Source: a virus
Taxonomy: Duplodnaviria > Heunggongvirae > Uroviricota > Caudoviricetes
Virus record (IMG/VR): IMGVR_UViG_2703718792_000009
Length of the DNA stretch: 12,086 bases
Reading direction: 5' to 3' (one strand)
Below are positions 597 through 12,086 of this stretch, piece after piece (position 1 is the first letter of the stretch; each line of letters begins with the position of its first letter). Both the position numbers and the translations under genes were made by a program. The notes under the pieces are model-generated. The model was given only the letters and a program-made list of their open reading frames with translations. It was not told the DNA's origin and did not search any database.

Positions 597-893
597 TCAG
601 AATTGCATATCAATTTGCTTAAAATCCTCGGTGGCAGCCGGGGATTTTTTCTTTGTGATTTCATCAAGCGCATACTTAAAAGCCCTGCTAATCGGACTGA
701 TGTCTGATGCCATTCCGAAAGCACACAAGACCGAAGCAATAAATCTCCAGTCCGTTCTGCTTATCTTCGATTCATGACAGCCAATCATCTTTGCCAGACC
801 GCGCTGAGTAAGCGCTGACAGGTTGATAAGTAAATCTGTTTCTGCGCGATCAACGTCGCGCTGTGATAGTTTGCTGTAACTTGTTTGTTCCAT
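597..893 (-). CDS. cII: cII-like transcriptional activator
   Basis: 98-aa ORF; C-terminus ITKKKSPAATEDFKQIDMQF resembles lambda cII (...ILTNKKRPAATERSEQIQMEF) and an internal SKISRTDW segment resembles the cII HTH region; lies between cro and O as in lambda. Confidence 0.8.
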   Translation of the reverse strand: MEQTSYSKLSQRDVDRAETDLLINLSALTQRGLAKMIGCHESKISRTDWRFIASVLCAFGMASDISPISRAFKYALDEITKKKSPAATEDFKQIDMQF

Positions 894-1034: not shown

Positions 1035-1250
1035 TTAAGCGGATTTGTGTTCTGGCGGGAATACGTCATCAAGACTTACTTTTGCGCCTAACTTGTTTAG
1101 ACACGCAACAAGAGCACGGCATGTTTTAAGGTCTGGGAAGCGACGACCAGATTCCCAATGTCCGATAGCTCCCTGTGTGCATCCAACTTCCTTAGCAAGT
1201 GTTGTTTGAGAGATATTCAGTGACTCTCGATATTTTCGTAGGTTGCTCAT
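1035..1250 (-). CDS. cro: Cro-like HTH repressor (71 aa)
   Basis: Start taken at the internal ATG (complement of 1248-1250), preceded by GGAGGG; [39 protein letters not shown]... is an HTH_XRE-type domain resembling the N-terminus of the adjacent cI; divergent from cI across an operator region. Confidence 0.8.
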
Positions 1251-1276
1251 ATGCCCTCCATAGTAACCATGAAGAA

Positions 1277-1360: not shown

Positions 1361-2020
1361 ATGAAAATGAAATGGTATGAACTGGCTAGATCCAGAATGA
1401 AAGAGCTCGGCATAACTCAAGAGAAGTTAGCCGAAGAGCTAGGTATGACGCAGGGTGGGATTGGACACTGGTTGCGCGGATCTCGTCATCCATCTCTTAG
1501 TGATATTGGTGTGGTGTTTAAATACCTTGGTATTGATAACATATCATTCAACCACGACGGGACATTTTCACCTGTTGGCGAATACTCATCGGCCCCAGTT
1601 AAAAAACAATATGAGTACCCTGTTTTTTCTCATGTTCAGGCTGGGATGTTCTCTCCAGAACTTAGAACCTTTACCAAAGGTGATGCAGAGAGATGGGTAA
1701 GCACAACCAAAAAAGCCAGTGATTCTGCATTCTGGCTTGAGGTTGAAGGTAACTCAATGACCGCACCAACAGGTTCCAAGCCCAGTTTTCCTGATGGAAT
1801 ATTAATTCTGGTTGACCCTGAAAAGGCCGTTGAGCCTGGCGATTTCTGCATAGCCAGACTTGGTGGTGATGAATTTACCTTCAAGAAACTGATCAGGGAT
1901 AGCGGTCAGGTGTTTTTACAACCACTAAACCCACAGTACCCAATAATCCCATGCAATGAGAGTTGTTCCGTTGTGGGGAAAGTTATCGCCAGCCAGTGGC
2001 CTGAAGAGACGTTTGGGTAA
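1361..2020 (+). CDS. cI: cI-type prophage repressor with LexA/S24-like autocleavage domain (219 aa); C-terminal domain lambda-cI-like, N-terminal HTH of a different immunity type
   Basis: C-terminal ~135 aa ([63 protein letters not shown]...[23 protein letters not shown]...[10 protein letters not shown]) match lambda cI as recalled, including the GNSM serine and FKKL lysine; N-terminus [37 protein letters not shown] is unlike lambda. Start set at ATG 1361; the longer track ORF from 1199 would overlap cro and the operators. Confidence 0.9.
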
Positions 2021-2049
2021 CCACAATACAACCTTGTTGTCGCAAAAAG

Positions 2050-2097
2050 ATCGCATATGCGATTGTTTATTAGAAATAGAAATCGCCATATAGGCGA
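2050..2097. promoter_or_regulatory. Two palindromes with TCGC/GCGA half-sites in the cI to 2139-gene intergenic region (2050-2063 ATCGCATATGCGAT, perfect; 2083-2097 TCGCCATATAGGCGA)
   Basis: Read directly from the sequence; located 40-90 bp upstream of the 2139 start codon. Function unknown. Confidence 0.3.
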
Positions 2098-2138
2098 ATA
2101 GTCGATCGCGGCGCATAACCTAAGGAAATCAATAACAT

Positions 2139-3041
2139 ATGCCAAATTTACCGATGGGCGGATCGCAGGGTGAATTACCCTTAGTACCTACAGTAGAAGT
2201 TGTTGCTGATGGCATTCCTATGGGGGTGCTTAATGATGGAACCCCTTATCTAACTCTTTACGGTTTAGCCAAATTATGTGGCATAGATGAAGCACCTCTT
2301 CGAATGTTTACATCTAACTGGGAGACTGAAAAAAATAAGCCAAGAGGACAAAAAGTAGCTGCATACTTAGCTGAGAAAGGATTTAACAACGTTGACCGAC
2401 TGTATACCCGCGTCATAAATAGCTCAAACGTTGAAACACATGCTTATCCTGACTATGTTTGTATGGCTGTTCTTAGGTACTATGCCCTCGATGCCACAAA
2501 TTTTGATAGATCCGTTGCAATAGGAAACTTTGTTCGCTTAGCTGAATACACGCTCAAGCGAATGATCTATGAAAAAGCAAACTATAACCCCAACGCTGCC
2601 ATAGACGTTTCATTCGAAAACTATAGAGCTCGTATAAAGCTAAACAACCAAATACCAACAACTCATTTTGCTGTATTCAGAGAAATAGCAGATATTGCAA
2701 TGACGTTAATAGGAAATGGCTTTCCTATGGATGATACCACGTCACTAGACGGAAGCGTTGGAAATCACTGGGGAAAGTATTGGACAAAAAACAACCTTTC
2801 CGAGAGATTTGGTGATAGAGTTCAATATCAACACATTTTCCCTGAAAACTACAGGCAATCTGCAGCCAACAAGTACATAAAAGCCTGGATTTACCCTATC
2901 GAATCATTGGGGCTATTCAGGAAATGGCTTCACGATAACTATGCCATGGAAAAACTACCCAAATATCTTGGAAACAAAAAAATCAGTAACATAACTGAAC
3001 TATTGGAAGCCGTCAAAAAACCAGCATTACCAAACCAGTGA
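2139..3041 (+). CDS. Hypothetical 300-aa protein in the rexAB-equivalent slot (between cI and PL/nutL); candidate prophage-encoded anti-phage (abortive infection / exclusion) protein
   Basis: Long clean ORF; AAGGA 12 nt upstream of ATG; followed by a strong intrinsic terminator. Not RexA-like. No P-loop or obvious nuclease motif seen. Looks AT-richer than cI by eye (not computed). Confidence 0.8.
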   Translation: MPNLPMGGSQGELPLVPTVEVVADGIPMGVLNDGTPYLTLYGLAKLCGIDEAPLRMFTSNWETEKNKPRGQKVAAYLAEKGFNNVDRLYTRVINSSNVETHAYPDYVCMAVLRYYALDATNFDRSVAIGNFVRLAEYTLKRMIYEKANYNPNAAIDVSFENYRARIKLNNQIPTTHFAVFREIADIAMTLIGNGFPMDDTTSLDGSVGNHWGKYWTKNNLSERFGDRVQYQHIFPENYRQSAANKYIKAWIYPIESLGLFRKWLHDNYAMEKLPKYLGNKKISNITELLEAVKKPALPNQ

Positions 3042-3062: not shown

Positions 3063-3090
3063 AACCCGGCCTCAGCGCCGGGTTTTCTTT
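3063..3090 (+). terminator. Rho-independent terminator after the 2139-3041 gene (t_imm-like)
   Basis: aaCCCGGC-ctcagc-GCCGGGtt stem (8 bp) followed by TTTTCTTT. Confidence 0.6.
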
Positions 3091-3231
3091 GCCTCACGCC
3101 CCCACCTAAAGACACATAACCAAATGTATTTATTGAAAAATAAATAGATACAACTCACTAAACCACGCAATTCTGATCTCTCCTTACATCGCCGAGGCGA
3201 TACACCCACGCTAAAAAACAACACTATTAAA

Positions 3232-3300
3232 TACAAAGTGTTATAAAAAATCACCCTATTTTAGAACAAATCGTATTGACCCAATAAAGTACATATCGTA
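3232..3300. promoter_or_regulatory. OL-like tripartite operator: TACAAAGTGTT (3232-3242), AACAAATCGTA (3265-3275), TACATATCGTA (3290-3300)
   Basis: Same TACA-N3-TGTA family as at OR; centre spacings 33 and 25 bp, close to the 32 and 26 bp at OR; overlaps the PL -35/-10. Confidence 0.45.
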
Positions 3301-3304
3301 CTAT
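3276..3304 (+). promoter_or_regulatory. PL-like promoter: -35 TTGACC (3276-3281), 17-bp spacer, -10 TACTAT (3299-3304)
   Basis: Consensus-like -35 with canonical spacing, ~190 bp upstream of N and ~45 bp upstream of nutL boxA. Confidence 0.5.
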
Positions 3305-3828: not shown

Positions 3829-4452
3829 ATGTCATCAATCCGCTTAACTACGAGAATGAAAGAGGATATCGCTCGTAACGCTTTAATTAAGTCCGGGGTT
3901 TTCACCGAACTTGAAGAAGTAACAAAGTTAAAGAACCGGCTTGCACTTGACGCCAGAGTTGTTGCGTTTGGCGGTAAAAAGAAAACTGAAGAAGTGGATC
4001 AGTTATCATCCAGATTAATGGCTATAAGTGAAGAACTTGAAAAGATGGGATGTTCATTTTACTCATACGATGTTCGTTCTACTTCAATTTATCTGACTGT
4101 ATCTGGCAGAAGGGTTGGCTGGTATTCATATGGAAAAGACGGTAACGGCGAAGATATATTGCTCCCTACTCCTAACAGAGATAAATGCATGTTTAACGCA
4201 GAACACGAAATAACAAAAAGGTTTGATGAAATCTGCGCATTGCAACAAAAACTTGAAGCCAGGAAAAAGGATATCGAATCAAATGTATGGGCTGCTTTGA
4301 ACTCAGTAACAACAGTTAAGCGACTTATTGAAGTTTGGCCTGAAAGCAAAGAATTGCTACCAAAAGAAGCAGATAAAGCAAGTACAGCACTTCCTGCTTT
4401 ACGGGTAGAAGATTTGAATAAGATGATTGGACTTCCTTCCGAGGCCGCATAG
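3829..4452 (+). CDS. Hypothetical 207-aa soluble protein in the N to cIII interval (ral/sieB-equivalent accessory slot)
   Basis: GAGAGGA RBS 6 nt before ATG 3829 (the track ORF begins at a TTG at 3769); no hydrophobic segments; no motif I recognise; stop codon sits in the loop of a terminator hairpin. Confidence 0.7.
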   Translation: MSSIRLTTRMKEDIARNALIKSGVFTELEEVTKLKNRLALDARVVAFGGKKKTEEVDQLSSRLMAISEELEKMGCSFYSYDVRSTSIYLTVSGRRVGWYSYGKDGNGEDILLPTPNRDKCMFNAEHEITKRFDEICALQQKLEARKKDIESNVWAALNSVTTVKRLIEVWPESKELLPKEADKASTALPALRVEDLNKMIGLPSEAA

Positions 4453-4997: not shown

Positions 4998-5705
4998 ATG
5001 GATTTGAATAAATTCGATGAGCCATTCAGCCCCGAAGATATCGAATGGCGAATACAGCAAAGCGGTAAAACACGCGATGGCAAGGTGTGGGCTATGGTGC
5101 TGGCTTATGTCACGAACCGGGCAATCATGAAACGCCTGGACGATGTTTGCGGAAAAGCAGGATGGCGCAATGAATACCGCGATATTCCCAACAACGGCGG
5201 CGTTGAATGCGGCATATCAATAAAGATTGATTCCGAATGGGTCACCAAATGGGATGCTGCTGAAAACACGCAGGTAGAAGCCGTCAAAGGTGGTCGTTCC
5301 GGTGCAATGAAGCGCGCTGCCGTTCAGTGGGGAATCGGTCGGTATCTGTATAACCTTGAGGAAGGTTTCGCACAAACATCTCTCGATAAAAAGCAGGGGT
5401 GGCACAGGGCAAAACTGAAAGATGGAACAGGATTTTACTGGCTCCCTCCATCTCTGCCGGGATGGGCAATCCCAGCATCAGATAACAAACCATCACCAGA
5501 AAATACCAACCAGAAATCTCCATCGGTTGACTGCGAACAAATCCTGAAAGACTTCAGCGATTATGCGTCAACAGAAACTGACAAGAAAAAACTCATCGAG
5601 CGTTATCAGCGTGACTGGCAATTAATGGCTGGCAACGAGGAGGCGCAGGCTAAATGCGTTCAGGTAATGAACATCAGAGTTAACGAACTAAAACAGGCGG
5701 CATAA
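4998..5705 (+). CDS. Rad52/Sak-like single-strand annealing protein (235 aa)
   Basis: N-terminal pattern DIEWRIQQSGKTRDGKVWAMVLAYVTNRAIMKRLDDVCGKAGWRNEY is typical of Rad52-family phage annealing proteins; GAGGTG RBS; sits where lambda has bet. Confidence 0.7.
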   Translation: MDLNKFDEPFSPEDIEWRIQQSGKTRDGKVWAMVLAYVTNRAIMKRLDDVCGKAGWRNEYRDIPNNGGVECGISIKIDSEWVTKWDAAENTQVEAVKGGRSGAMKRAAVQWGIGRYLYNLEEGFAQTSLDKKQGWHRAKLKDGTGFYWLPPSLPGWAIPASDNKPSPENTNQKSPSVDCEQILKDFSDYASTETDKKKLIERYQRDWQLMAGNEEAQAKCVQVMNIRVNELKQAA

Positions 5706-6173
5706 ATGTCTCACTTGGACGGAATTATTAAAAGATTCGAGTCCAGCTACAAAGTTAATGAAACAACAGGTTGCTGGGAGTCTACCTATTCAAAAAACAA
5801 AGGAGGATACACAAAATTTGTAGCCTTTGGCGTAACAATGCTTTCTCATCGGGTTGCTTTTGAGCTTTATCACTCCCCCATTCCATCTGGGAAGATGGTT
5901 TGCCACAAATGCGATAACCCATGCTGCGTTAATCCTGAACATCTCTTTTTAGGTAGCGCGCAAGAAAACATGGACGACAAGATAGCAAAAGGAAGGCATC
6001 GTGGAGCCAAGAAAGGTCATGCTCATCATGGTGCAAAATTAACAGAGTGGCAGGTTATAGAAATTAGGAAAAGACTCTCTGAAAAAGAGAGTCAGTACAA
6101 GATAGCAAAAGACATGGGTGTATCTCAATCAATTATAAGCAACATAAAAACTGGCAAGAGGTGGAGCAAATGA
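5706..6173 (+). CDS. HNH endonuclease (155 aa), free-standing
   Basis: Core [27 protein letters not shown] (HNH with Cys-rich metal site); start is immediately after the annealing-protein stop and the stop overlaps the ssb start (ATGA). Confidence 0.8.
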
Positions 6174-6676
6174 GTTCTCGCGGGATAAATAAGGTGATTA
6201 TCCTTGGTCGGGTAGGACAAGACCCTGAAGTTCGATACTCACCATCAGGAACAGCGTTCGCTAACCTGACAATAGCCACGTCAGAACAATGGCGAGATAA
6301 AAATACTGGCGAGCAAAAGGAATTGACTGAATGGCATCGTGTTGCTGTATCCGGGAAACTTGCTGAGGTCGTGGGGCAGTATGTGAAAAAAGGTGATCAG
6401 ATTTATTTCGAGGGAATGCTGAGAACCAGAAAGTGGAAAGACCAGTCAGGGCAAGACCGTTACACAACCGAGGTTCATGTCGGAATTAATGGCGTGATGC
6501 AAATGCTTGGCGGCATTGGCGACAGCAAACAACAAGCAGCCAACAGGCAATCACAGAAGCCACAGCAGCAATCATCACCAGCACAACACAACGAACCTCC
6601 GATGGATTTTGACGACGATATACCCTTTGCACCAGTAACTCTCCCCTTCCCTCATCACGCTATTCACGCAATTTAA
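6170..6676 (+). CDS. ssb: Single-stranded DNA-binding protein SSB, with a 15-aa extension beyond the canonical DDDIPF tip
   Basis: [42 protein letters not shown]...TEWHRV...[11 protein letters not shown]...[11 protein letters not shown] aligns with E. coli SSB as recalled; the ORF continues [15 protein letters not shown] before the stop. Confidence 0.9.
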
Positions 6677-6684
6677 GGACTTAC

Positions 6685-7233
6685 ATGAATCACTTAATGG
6701 TTGACCTTGAAACAATGGGCAACGGTCCATACGCGCCAGTTATTTCTATTGGGGCGGTATTCTTTGACCCGAATACCGGAGAAACAGGAGAAGAGTTCTC
6801 GGTAAATATCTCGCTTGAGTCATCAATGCGATATCGGGCGCGTCCTGACGCTTCAACGATTTTATGGTGGATGGAACAGAGTGAAGAAGCCAGAAAATCG
6901 CTAACCAGCAACACTCAAGAGCTTTCAACGGCTCTTTCATGGTTATCTGAATTCATCATAAAGAACGCTAACCACAAATTCGTTCAGGTTTGGGGGAATG
7001 GAGCATCATTTGACTGCGTTATTCTCCGCAACAGTTATTCGCTGACAGGGCAGCCAGTTCCGTGGCAGTGGTGGAATGACCGCGACGTAAGAACAATCGT
7101 CGAGCTTGGAAAGGTAATAGGATTCGACCCTAAGCGAGATATGCCATTCAAAGGAACTCGCCACAACGCGCTTGATGATGCCATCCACCAAGCCAAATAC
7201 GTTTCAGCGATCTGGAAAAAGTTAGCTAAATAA
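6685..7233 (+). CDS. DnaQ-like (DEDDh) 3'-5' exonuclease (182 aa)
   Basis: Exo I MVDLETMG (D-x-E), Exo II-like WGNGASFDCVIL, Exo III HNALDDAIHQAKY (H-x4-D); AAGGA RBS. Confidence 0.75.
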   Translation: MNHLMVDLETMGNGPYAPVISIGAVFFDPNTGETGEEFSVNISLESSMRYRARPDASTILWWMEQSEEARKSLTSNTQELSTALSWLSEFIIKNANHKFVQVWGNGASFDCVILRNSYSLTGQPVPWQWWNDRDVRTIVELGKVIGFDPKRDMPFKGTRHNALDDAIHQAKYVSAIWKKLAK

Positions 7234-7249
7234 TCAACCGGAGAAAAAC

Positions 7250-7543
7250 ATGCCAGCGCCTTTGTATGGTGCGGATGACGCGCGCCGCTGTTCCGGCAAT
7301 TCCGTATCGGAGGTGCTGGATAAATTCAGAAAAAACTACGATCGGATAATGTCGCTACCGCAGGAAACGAAAGAGGAAAAGGAATTTCGCCATTGTATAT
7401 GGCTTGCAGAGAAAGAAGAACGCGAGCGAATTTACCAGACATCAATCCGACCATTCCGCAAAGCCACATATACCCACTTCCCTGAAATTGACCCGCGCCT
7501 GCGTAATTACCGCTCACGCTATGGCGCTATCAGTAATGACTGA
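7250..7543 (+). CDS. Hypothetical protein (97 aa)
   Basis: GGAGA RBS 5 nt before ATG; same-strand operon context; no motif recognised. Confidence 0.55.
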
Positions 7544-10838: not shown

Positions 10839-12086
10839 CTATATTGCTGAAGGTACAGGCGTTTCCATAACTATTTGCTCGCGTTTTTTACTCAGGAAGA
10901 AAATGCCAAATAGCAACATCAGGCAGACAATACCCGAAATTGCGAAGAAAACTGTCTGGTAGCCTGCGTGGTCAAAGAGTATCCCAGTCGGCGTTGAAAG
11001 CAGCACAATCCCAAGCGAACTGGCAATTTGAAAACCAATCAGAAAGATCGTCGACGACAGGCGCTTATCAAAGTTTGCCACGCTGTATTTGAAGACGGAT
11101 ATGACACAAAGTGGAACCTCAATGGCATGTAACAGCTTCACTAATGAAATAATCCAGGGGTTAACGAACAGCGCGCAGGAAAGGATACGCAACGCCATAA
11201 TCACAACACCGATAAGTAATGCATTTTTTGGCCCTACCCGATTCACAAAGAAAGGAATAATCGCCATGCACAGCGCTTCGAGTACCACCTGGAATGAGTT
11301 GAGATAACCATACAGGCGCGTTCCTACATCGTGTGATTCGAATAAACCTGCATAAAAGACAGGAAAGAGTTGTTGATCAAAAATGTTATAGAAAGACCAC
11401 GTCCCCACAATAAATATGACAAAAACCCAGAAGTTTCGATCCTTGAAAACTGCGATAAAATCCTCTTTTTTTACCCCTCCCGCATCCGCCGCTATGCACT
11501 GGTGATCCTTATCTTTAAAACGCATGTTGATCATCATAAATACAGCGCCAAATAGCGAGACCAACCAGAAGTTGATATGGGGACTGATACTAAAAAATAT
11601 ACCGGCAAAGAACGCGCCAATAGCATAGCCAAAAGATCCCCAGGCGCGCGCTGTTCCATATTCGAAATGAAAATTTCGCGCCATTTTTTCGGTGAAGCTG
11701 TCAAGCAAACCGCATCCCGCCAGATACCCCAGGCCAAAAAAGAGCGCCCCCAGAATTAGACCTACAGAAAAATTGCTTTGCAGTAACGGTTCATAAACGT
11801 AAATCATAAACGGTCCGGTCAAGACCAGAATGAAACTCATACACCAGATGAGCGGTTTCTTCAGACCGAGTTTATCCTGAACGATGCCGTAGAACATCAT
11901 AAATAGAATGCTGGTAAACTGGTTGACCGAATAAAGTGTACCTAATTCCGTCCCTGTTAATCCTAGATGTCCTTTCAGCCAAATAGCGTATAACGACCAC
12001 CACAGCGACCAGGAAATAAAAAAGAGAAATGAGTAACTGGATGCAAAACGATAGTACGCATTTCTGAATGGAATATTCAGTGCCAT
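10839..12086 (-). CDS. cscB: LacY-family oligosaccharide:H+ symporter, most likely sucrose permease CscB (415 aa, complete; start codon is the last 3 nt of the window)
   Basis: Aligns by eye along its length with LacY (DKLGLKKPLIWCMSFILVLTGPF...NFHFEYGTARAWGSFGYAIG... vs LacY [23 protein letters not shown]...NFEFGRARMFGCVGWALC...); N-terminus MALNIPFRNAYYRFASSYSFLFF matches my recollection of CscB. Confidence 0.8.
   Translation of the reverse strand: MALNIPFRNAYYRFASSYSFLFFISWSLWWSLYAIWLKGHLGLTGTELGTLYSVNQFTSILFMMFYGIVQDKLGLKKPLIWCMSFILVLTGPFMIYVYEPLLQSNFSVGLILGALFFGLGYLAGCGLLDSFTEKMARNFHFEYGTARAWGSFGYAIGAFFAGIFFSISPHINFWLVSLFGAVFMMINMRFKDKDHQCIAADAGGVKKEDFIAVFKDRNFWVFVIFIVGTWSFYNIFDQQLFPVFYAGLFESHDVGTRLYGYLNSFQVVLEALCMAIIPFFVNRVGPKNALLIGVVIMALRILSCALFVNPWIISLVKLLHAIEVPLCVISVFKYSVANFDKRLSSTIFLIGFQIASSLGIVLLSTPTGILFDHAGYQTVFFAISGIVCLMLLFGIFFLSKKREQIVMETPVPSAI

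Follow-up and report, generated by a model that had tools for sequence, protein, structure and literature searches.

The window, i.e., the complete 12,086-nt stretch of viral DNA that was analyzed, contained a cI-type repressor gene followed by a second gene in the slot that is occupied by rex in phage lambda. The following features were located by sequence analysis.

Whole window: lambdoid immunity region, in an orientation opposite to that of the lambda map
Minus strand: replication gene O with ori iterons
597-893, minus strand: cII
1035-1253, minus strand: cro
1361-2020, plus strand: cI-type prophage repressor (Pfam matches to HTH_3 and Peptidase_S24)
2018-2020: cI stop codon
2021-2138, plus strand: bstA leader, part of the bstA cassette and not of the cI module
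2028-2040, plus strand: inverted repeat ACAAC-ctt-GTTGT with 5-bp, AT-rich arms of a size expected by chance
2050-2063 (-89 to -76 from the ATG): pal1, perfect 14-bp palindrome ATCGCATATGCGAT, flanked by an A-run and a T-run
2083-2097 (-56 to -42 from the ATG): pal2, inverted repeat TCGCC-ATATA-GGCGA with 5-bp arms
2104-2166, plus strand: predicted anti-BstA (aba) self-immunity DNA element, 63 bp, -35 to +28 from the ATG
2122-2126, plus strand: Shine-Dalgarno sequence AAGGA of bstA, inside the predicted aba
2139-3041, plus strand: bstA, predicted 300-aa abortive-infection phage-defense protein (PADLOC profile, homology with BstA of phage BTP1)
2533-2562: in-ORF inverted repeat TTCGCTT...AAGCGAA, of a size expected by chance
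3063-3084, plus strand: Rho-independent terminator (Timm; -15.9 kcal/mol, z -3.0), predicted end of the cI-bstA transcript
Around 3276-3304: OL/PL
3288-3302: OL site AGTACATATCGTACT
Beyond OL/PL, plus strand: N

Several observations concerned parts of the window at a distance from the cI-bstA junction. An 18-nt iteron (CCCTCGTTTTGAGGGATA type) that occurs four times at 133-217, with 20-24-bp spacing and within the minus-strand replication gene, represents a lambda-type origin. The region downstream of N (3829-4452, 4998-6173, and 6161-7543) encoded an Nmad5-domain protein, a Rad52-family recombinase, and an HNH endonuclease, and genes for SSB, an Rv2179c-like exonuclease, and a P22-type anti-RecBCD protein (Abc2) were found in the same region. 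Together, these genes make up an early-left operon of the P22-like kind that includes a nucleotide-modification-associated gene. On the minus strand (10839-12086), a complete lacY (E 9e-194) adjoined the phage early-left genes. No integrase-sized ORF was present between lacY and these genes, and no lacA-sized ORF occurred downstream of lacY in the window. The position of lacY suggests either a prophage end, or a deletion, beside a lac operon.

The original prediction for this locus had drawn attention to palindromes with TCGC/GCGA half-sites in the 118-bp gap between the cI stop codon (2018-2020) and the ATG at 2139, a gap size that was confirmed by reading of the sequence. The perfect 14-bp palindrome ATCGCATATGCGAT was indeed present at 2050-2063, with an imperfect extension to 2045-2068, as was CGATCG at 2103-2108. 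In contrast, TCGCCATATAGGCGA at 2083-2097, which had been presented as a second, related palindrome, is not palindromic: its 5-bp arms TCGCC and GGCGA enclose a non-palindromic 5-nt center, ATATA, and its TCGC and GCGA half-sites are 7 nt apart, as compared to 4 nt in pal1. The inverted repeat ACAAC-ctt-GTTGT, assigned to 2025-2037, was found 3 nt further downstream, at 2028-2040. The repeat TTCGCTT...AAGCGAA within the ORF was found at 2533-2562, as had been indicated, with 7-bp arms and a 16-nt spacer. Pairing of its arms decreased in relatives from 7 to 4 of 7 positions via synonymous changes and without compensation, while the encoded peptide VRLAEYTLKR was conserved. In view of this synonymous decay and of its chance-level size, the in-ORF repeat was rejected as a functional element and interpreted as a by-product of coding. 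Another inverted repeat, ATCGCC-GA-GGCGAT at 3188-3201, had arms identical to those of pal2. It is situated between the terminator and OL, in an OL-proximal module outside the bstA cassette, and this segment is shared with VT2-Sakai, in which the repeat is imperfect (GGCAAT). The identity of its arms to those of pal2 is probably a coincidence.

The statement that in lambda rexA follows cI without such a leader proved to be incorrect, since in NC_001416 a gap of 112 bp separates cI (37227-37940) from rexA (36275-37114). Lambda rexA/rexB thus resembles the locus in the window in that a defense cargo in the cI-N slot, preceded by a leader of ca. 112 bp after cI, is co-transcribed with cI from PRM until Timm. 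Proteins and leader sequence of the two loci are, however, unrelated. We know of no aba-like self-immunity DNA element in Rex.

Comparison with related phages and prophages was used to define the borders of the cargo cassette. The conserved 3' end of cI, encoding SQWPEETFG*, represents its left recombination junction, and homology of cI with the corresponding genes of lambda, E212, and CL707 ended at the stop codon. A group of O111 strains carried a different cI, yet their sequences were identical to the window from position 1993 on, including the leader. The right junction was located just beyond the shared terminator at 3063-3084, whose homologous site is annotated as Timm in CL707 and as the pRM terminator in VT2-Sakai. 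These observations indicated that the leader travels with bstA. Leaders of the window type occurred in 33 of 5426 complete E. coli genomes, with an identity of at least 97.5% and bstA present every time, while beyond E. coli they were found in a few viral and metagenome contigs, all at least 97.5% identical. No diverged copies were found in the complete E. coli genomes or in the viral and metagenome contigs. Because every known copy is at least 97.5% identical, constraint on 2021-2103 is not measurable, and the invariance of this segment is uninformative, since the 300 bp of coding sequence that follow likewise show no variation. Leaders were non-homologous between cassettes of the cI-N (rex) slot, and 2021-2103 showed no significant homology to other bstA leaders (best case locus L066, p 0.02, uncorrected).

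BstA has been described as a prophage abortive-infection protein whose gene is located downstream of cI (Owen et al., 2021, PMC8585504). The ORF at 2139-3041 matched the PADLOC BstA profile PDLC02356 with an E-value of 4.1e-106 (residues 8-291 on profile positions 4-286 of 292), and tblastn showed 40.5% identity of the encoded protein to BTP1 BstA over 291 aa (97% coverage, E 3e-68) and 84-86% identity to a protein of phage CL707. Homology to BstA was full-length, covering both the N- and the C-terminal domain, and 84 columns of the BstA alignment were invariant. The gene order of the family was also observed, with bstA directly downstream of cI, co-oriented with it and followed by a Rho-independent terminator. 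On these grounds, the 300-aa ORF in the rex slot was identified as encoding BstA. A KilA-N-like (helix-turn-helix) DNA-binding domain has been assigned to the N-terminus of BstA by remote-homology methods only (PMC8585504). In the window protein, residues 39-124 gave a weak PADLOC HTH match (E 0.0037), while no Pfam or NCBIfam match was obtained at an E-value of 0.01 or better, and sequence search retrieved no solved structure for BstA. Residues 118-203 (window 2490-2747) showed a sub-significant match (E 0.089) to PDB 8vz6, an "Abi family protein," which might be a hint that the C-terminal half is related to Abi_2/AbiD-type proteins. BstA of the CP53/ST131 type was a mosaic (CP53 itself, locus L002, and loci L003, L043-L046, L060, and L064), in which the leader and the first ca. 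110 codons were of the window type and the C-terminal part, from a breakpoint near 2469 onward, of the CL707 type. Several copies of this type looked defective, with a TAG at codon 9 (L046), a truncated ORF (LR-17-1), IS1 beside or within the bstA locus (ECO2947), or IS5 in the neighboring cro gene (CP53).

In the Salmonella prophage BTP1, a 63-bp aba element at -29 to +34 of bstA, with CCCGCC as a terminal direct repeat, has been characterized experimentally. A single G-to-T change in either copy of CCCGCC abolishes activity, and the element acts as DNA, in trans only when multicopy, and specifically on its own BstA (PMC8585504). Suppression of the cognate BstA by multicopy DNA and necessity for prophage induction are features by which an aba element is defined. 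A set of 65 bstA loci, drawn from phage records, GTDB genomes, IMG/VR, and metagenomes, was anchored on the conserved MGVLNDG codon and reduced to 42 non-redundant loci (upstream regions less than 80% identical), in which direct repeats were sought at spacings of 30 to 90 bp. Direct repeats of 6 nt or longer without mismatches were present at a spacing of 56/57 bp in 20 of the 42 loci, as compared to an average of 1.9 loci, and never more than 7, in 500 shuffles. Spacing 57 occurred in 16 loci and spacing 56, which is part of the same signal, in 6, versus 0-5 for each other spacing between 30 and 90. The repeated words were up to 16 nt long and differed between loci. When mismatches were allowed, the two copies matched at a minimum of 7 of 10 positions in 37 of the 42 loci. 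First and second copies from the same locus agreed at 7.8 of 10 positions, and copies from different loci at 5.4 of 10 (Mann-Whitney p 2e-18). At the level of sequence, the repeated word is thus locus-specific, i.e., cognate, and the two-copy architecture with its 56/57-bp spacing holds across Proteobacteria. As far as the text and supplements of PMC8585504 show, this family-wide spacing rule has not been described there.

The survey also revealed a module in many enterobacterial bstA leaders (loci L009, L012-L015, L038, L055, L056, and L066), located ca. 100 to 45 nt before the bstA ATG. It consists of ACACAGCGCGAATCC, followed by a stem, a CAAAGA-type loop, the return stem, a T-rich tail, and, just before the first aba repeat, a CAGGGGAA box. 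Compensatory changes were found in four of the five pairs of the stem. The module, which was not recognizable in the window, could serve as a structured leader or, between cI and bstA, as a terminator or attenuator.

The window carried the direct repeat GATCGC at 2104-2109 and 2161-2166, 57 bp apart from start to start. Relative to the conserved MGVLNDG codon, these copies are positioned at -116 and -59, as compared to -115 and -59 for CCCGCC in BTP1, so that the offset is within 1 nt of that in BTP1. Based on this match and on the family-wide repeat at 56/57 bp, 2104-2166 was predicted to be the aba element. A single 6-nt pair at one fixed spacing, which is all that the window's 6-nt repeat offers, is not significant without the family context. 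The sequence CGATCG at 2103-2108 coincides with the first predicted aba repeat. The window shares with BTP1 a hexamer repeat whose copies are 56-57 bp apart, have the same offset from the protein motif, and enclose both the ribosome-binding site and the start codon. The encoded proteins are homologous in both domains (40% identity), and their genes occupy the slot downstream of cI and are followed by a Rho-independent terminator. TAAGGAAATCA at the Shine-Dalgarno sequence was conserved across enterobacterial bstA loci. The two systems differ in the repeated word (GATCGC in the window, CCCGCC in BTP1), in leader length (118 and 88 bp, respectively), and in the location of the repeats relative to the ATG (-35 and +23 in the window, -28 and +29 in BTP1), the last because the N-terminus encoded in the window is two codons shorter. 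Furthermore, BTP1 has no counterpart to the two palindromes and the third in-phase copy of the word that are present in the window.

Among eleven near-identical copies of the window leader type, eight variable sites were found in the span 1993-2468, seven of which (2108, 2110, 2112, 2120, 2143, 2157, and 2164) were located inside 2104-2166. No variable sites among these copies occurred in 2003-2107 or 2165-2468, and the same four differences represented all divergence in 23 E. coli genomes. The predicted aba is, accordingly, the single fast-changing patch among otherwise identical copies. This hypervariability agrees with selection on specificity or with a decay of defective prophages. Several of these prophages carry insertion sequences or nonsense mutations. 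In the CP53/ST131 group, the first repeat copy reads GATCTC, which means either that perfect identity of the repeats is not required or that these copies are defective.

A Dam site, GATC, was present at both repeat positions in an E. coli/Serratia/Yersinia clade (the window and loci L007/L047, L009, L013, L054, L055, and L066). It was kept despite differing next bases, as in GATCGG and GATCCC of L055 and GATCTC and GATCCC of L047. The window as a whole contained 28 GATC sites, versus ca. 47 predicted from base composition, three of which are at 2049, 2104, and 2161. The BTP1 aba is without GATC, so that any role of methylation would be clade-specific.

A close relative of the window protein is BstA-Ec of E. 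coli NCTC10963, whose locus corresponds to the immunity region of phage CL707 (EF120459). The proteins are 84-86% identical and the flanks, i.e., the 3' end of cI and Timm, are the same, but the first ca. 25 codons and the whole leader are unrelated to those of the window. The CL707-type leader is 86 bp long and has its own 10-bp palindrome, CATCTAGATG. The NCTC10963 locus with its upstream sequence confers cognate self-immunity (PMC8585504), and the allele tested in that study (primer NW_761) has the CL707-type leader and N-terminus rather than the window type. In the CL707/NCTC10963 locus, ATCCCT is repeated at 57 bp. As the word of the predicted aba in the window differs from it, cross-immunity between the two is not expected.

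These results place the palindromes in a different light. The idea of a cis-acting element for a regulator very probably holds insofar as a protein-recognized element is concerned, whereas the conserved part of this element consists of the GATCGC direct repeats and not of the palindromes. Both pal1 and pal2 were absent from all other bstA leader types, including those of loci L054 and L066, the closest relatives with the GATCG word of the window. Short palindromes of unrelated sequence were found soon after the cI stop codon in other leader types: CATCTAGATG 62 nt before the ATG in CL707 (L004), CGGCATATGCCG ca. 108 nt before it in L056, and CGGCA-tt-TGCCG in L055, likewise ca. 108 nt before it, and in L015. 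Individually, these were at chance level. Across bstA leaders, no family-wide enrichment of palindromes or hairpins was found (combined p 0.9).

That the palindromes of the window have no function, and arose by chance or as a mutational by-product in the AT-rich, unconstrained spacer of a mosaic cassette, for instance when a local duplication or a template switch copied the aba word, is a serious possibility, although rated somewhat below an even chance. Of the Markov shuffles of the complete 12-kb window, 58% contained a perfect palindrome of at least 14 bp. With inverted repeats counted from arms of at least 5 and loops of at most 5, three or more in 118 bp were found in 2.8% of real 118-nt windows of the same sequence, and three in 3.6% of dinucleotide shuffles. 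One of the 42 loci had a p-value below 0.05 for palindromes, as chance would give. Absence of a function would also agree with the non-homology of slot leaders between cassettes and with the presence of an inverted repeat in the lambda leader. Shuffling of the 118-bp gap itself yielded a perfect palindrome of this size in 1.7% of cases, and the palindromes are thus only mildly improbable by chance. The strongest non-random signal of 2021-2170 was word enrichment, which is harder to reconcile with an absence of function: GATCGC occurred in three copies in 2021-2170 versus three in the other 11.9 kb (Bonferroni-corrected p 0.025), and ATCGC in five copies versus 25 (0.009). Moreover, a third GATCGC at 2049 is in phase with the aba repeats, and a duplication that might have generated it left no trace at the level of alignment. 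Tandem or segmental duplication was rejected as the source of the extra ATCGC copies, since local alignments were no better than those of shuffles; Tandem Repeats Finder and a repeat search detected nothing beyond the palindrome.

The same enrichment raises the possibility of an extended aba, in which the palindromes would be extra BstA sites and a phased ATCGC array, with direct copies at 2049, 2104, and 2161 and inverted copies at 2059-2063 and 2094-2097, would raise avidity or add autoregulation of cI-bstA. In support of this proposal, (G)ATCGC is the most enriched word of 2021-2170. The left arm of pal1 forms, with G2049, the third GATCGC copy, on the same strand as the first aba repeat and 55 bp upstream of it, i.e., near the family spacing. 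The left arm of pal2 forms a further ATCGC copy with A2082, GATCGCA is common to pal1 and the second aba repeat, and the perfect 14-mer has a p-value of 0.017 within the gap. Against this, a third copy of a locus's own word was found in no other bstA locus, but only in the window leader type, and neither it nor the palindromes occur in L054 and L066 despite their identical GATCG word. The minimal BTP1 aba requires nothing upstream of -29, the unequal half-site spacings imply that one dimer geometry cannot fit both palindromes, and the statistics were chosen after the data had been seen. An extended aba is therefore regarded as rather unlikely.

Transcription of the leader bears directly on the claim that its gene is controlled independently of PRM. 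In BTP1, cI and bstA belong to one operon that has a single transcription start and none in the intergenic gap, which is spanned by reads, and the cI promoter drives high expression of bstA (PMC7067206). These data, the only experimental ones for the family, contradict independent control, and no sigma-70-like -35/-10 site with at least 9 of 12 matches was found in 2021-2138. By extrapolation from the 40%-identical BTP1 homolog, bstA in the window is most likely co-transcribed with cI from PRM, with termination at 3063-3084.

Palindromic symmetry and a location upstream of the gene are what one would expect if pal1 and pal2 were operators of a dimeric regulator acting on a PRM-independent bstA promoter, as the original prediction proposed. 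Neither the missing -35/-10 match nor the single cI-bstA start in BTP1 is compatible with this model, and the spacing of the two sites differs. Operators of the window phage itself have AGTAC-N5-GTACT half-sites. The leader contains no GTAC, which between 1936 and 2185 occurred in coding sequence only, and a role of the palindromes as cI/Cro operators was rejected because their half-sites are unrelated to those of OR/OL and GTAC is absent from the leader. Non-conservation of the palindromes in homologous bstA loci, which had been named beforehand as an observation that would speak against the operator model, has already largely refuted it. Operators of an independent regulator are thus a highly improbable explanation. 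Control of the cargo gene is also at odds with the known function of aba, which confers self-immunity as DNA and does not control transcription (PMC8585504).

Pal1 and pal2 might alternatively act at the RNA level. As weak hairpins, they could reduce read-through from cI into bstA, make the bicistronic mRNA more stable or direct its processing, or stop antisense transcripts before these reach cI. A pattern scan flagged pal1 (on both strands) and pal2 as terminator-like; pal1 is flanked by its A-run and T-run on both sides and pal2 is followed by TTTCTATTTC on the minus strand. Their stems comprise only 5-6 pairs, however, and predicted hairpin energies of -6.9 kcal/mol for pal1 and -7.6 (plus strand) and -8.2 kcal/mol (minus strand) for pal2 are weak in comparison with the -15.9 kcal/mol of the true terminator, Timm. 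The leader RNA folded somewhat better than shuffles (z -2.07), and in its best-energy fold CCUU (2032-2035) pairs with AAGG of the Shine-Dalgarno sequence. Pal1 was 74% complementary to the start-codon region. Long-range RNA pairing, either of pal1 with the start codon or by sequestration of the Shine-Dalgarno sequence, was set aside in view of a z-score of only -2 for the fold. The covarying hairpin and T-rich tail of other enterobacterial bstA leaders offer a precedent for RNA structure at this position, but the window leader had no significant homology to these leaders, and no Rfam family matched the window leader or 12 related loci. Reads crossing the gap and high expression of bstA from the cI promoter in BTP1 (PMC7067206) argue against attenuation, and minus-strand promoter-like sites were no more frequent than in shuffles. 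A function in RNA or termination is, in our assessment, decidedly improbable.

The reading that we consider the most probable, and more likely than not, takes 2021-2138 as the leader of a bstA cassette that occupies the cI-N (rex) slot and 2104-2166 as its aba, with the palindromes outside the conserved architecture. According to this model, bstA would be read with cI from PRM, as in the operon of BTP1, and its transcript terminated at 3063-3084. BstA is known as an abortive-infection protein that lysogens produce and that prevents superinfecting phages from replicating their DNA. The two GATCGC repeats, 57 bp apart, would bracket the ribosome-binding site and start codon, and their repeated word would presumably be recognized by the N-terminal DNA-binding domain of BstA. 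Upon induction, multiplication of prophage DNA would supply aba DNA that neutralizes the cognate BstA, so that the phage's own replication would not be aborted. This function is ascribed to 2104-2166 because it has been shown for BTP1. The palindromes are not operators of an independent regulator; most likely, they are variant-specific reiterations of the aba word and would be at most accessory BstA sites. Gene identity, repeat architecture, position, family conservation, and local hypervariability were derived from the present analysis, while the function of aba, its action as DNA, and its specificity, together with the cI-bstA operon, were taken from the homolog (PMC8585504; PMC7067206).

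The proposed logic of aba resembles that of decoy or titration DNA sites, such as iterons and partition-site arrays, in which repeated short words act in trans only at many copies. It differs from these in having only two copies at a fixed 57-bp spacing and in overlapping a translation start, and binding by BstA is putative. A more speculative extension, which we judge unlikely, is that an extended, phased (G)ATCGC array might sense phage copy number and/or the Dam methylation (replication) state, and perhaps feed back on the cI-bstA transcript, and that the 57-bp spacing with its locus-specific, fast-evolving words might be the code for aba specificity. The suggestion of Dam methylation derives from the GATC in each direct GATCGC copy, a site that many enterobacterial alleles retain in both repeats even with different neighboring bases.

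The original prediction pointed at the right neighborhood, but at the wrong features and the wrong function. The present analysis has corrective value in this respect: the palindromes are not the conserved signal, and independent control of the gene is not demonstrated. The locus in the window is a new variant of the known BstA-aba system, which is one of few defense systems with a built-in DNA "password" that spares the prophage from its own weapon. The window adds to this system a bstA variant with a new predicted aba word, and the combination of its architecture, a locus-specific word, and a single variable patch makes the specificity of aba directly testable.
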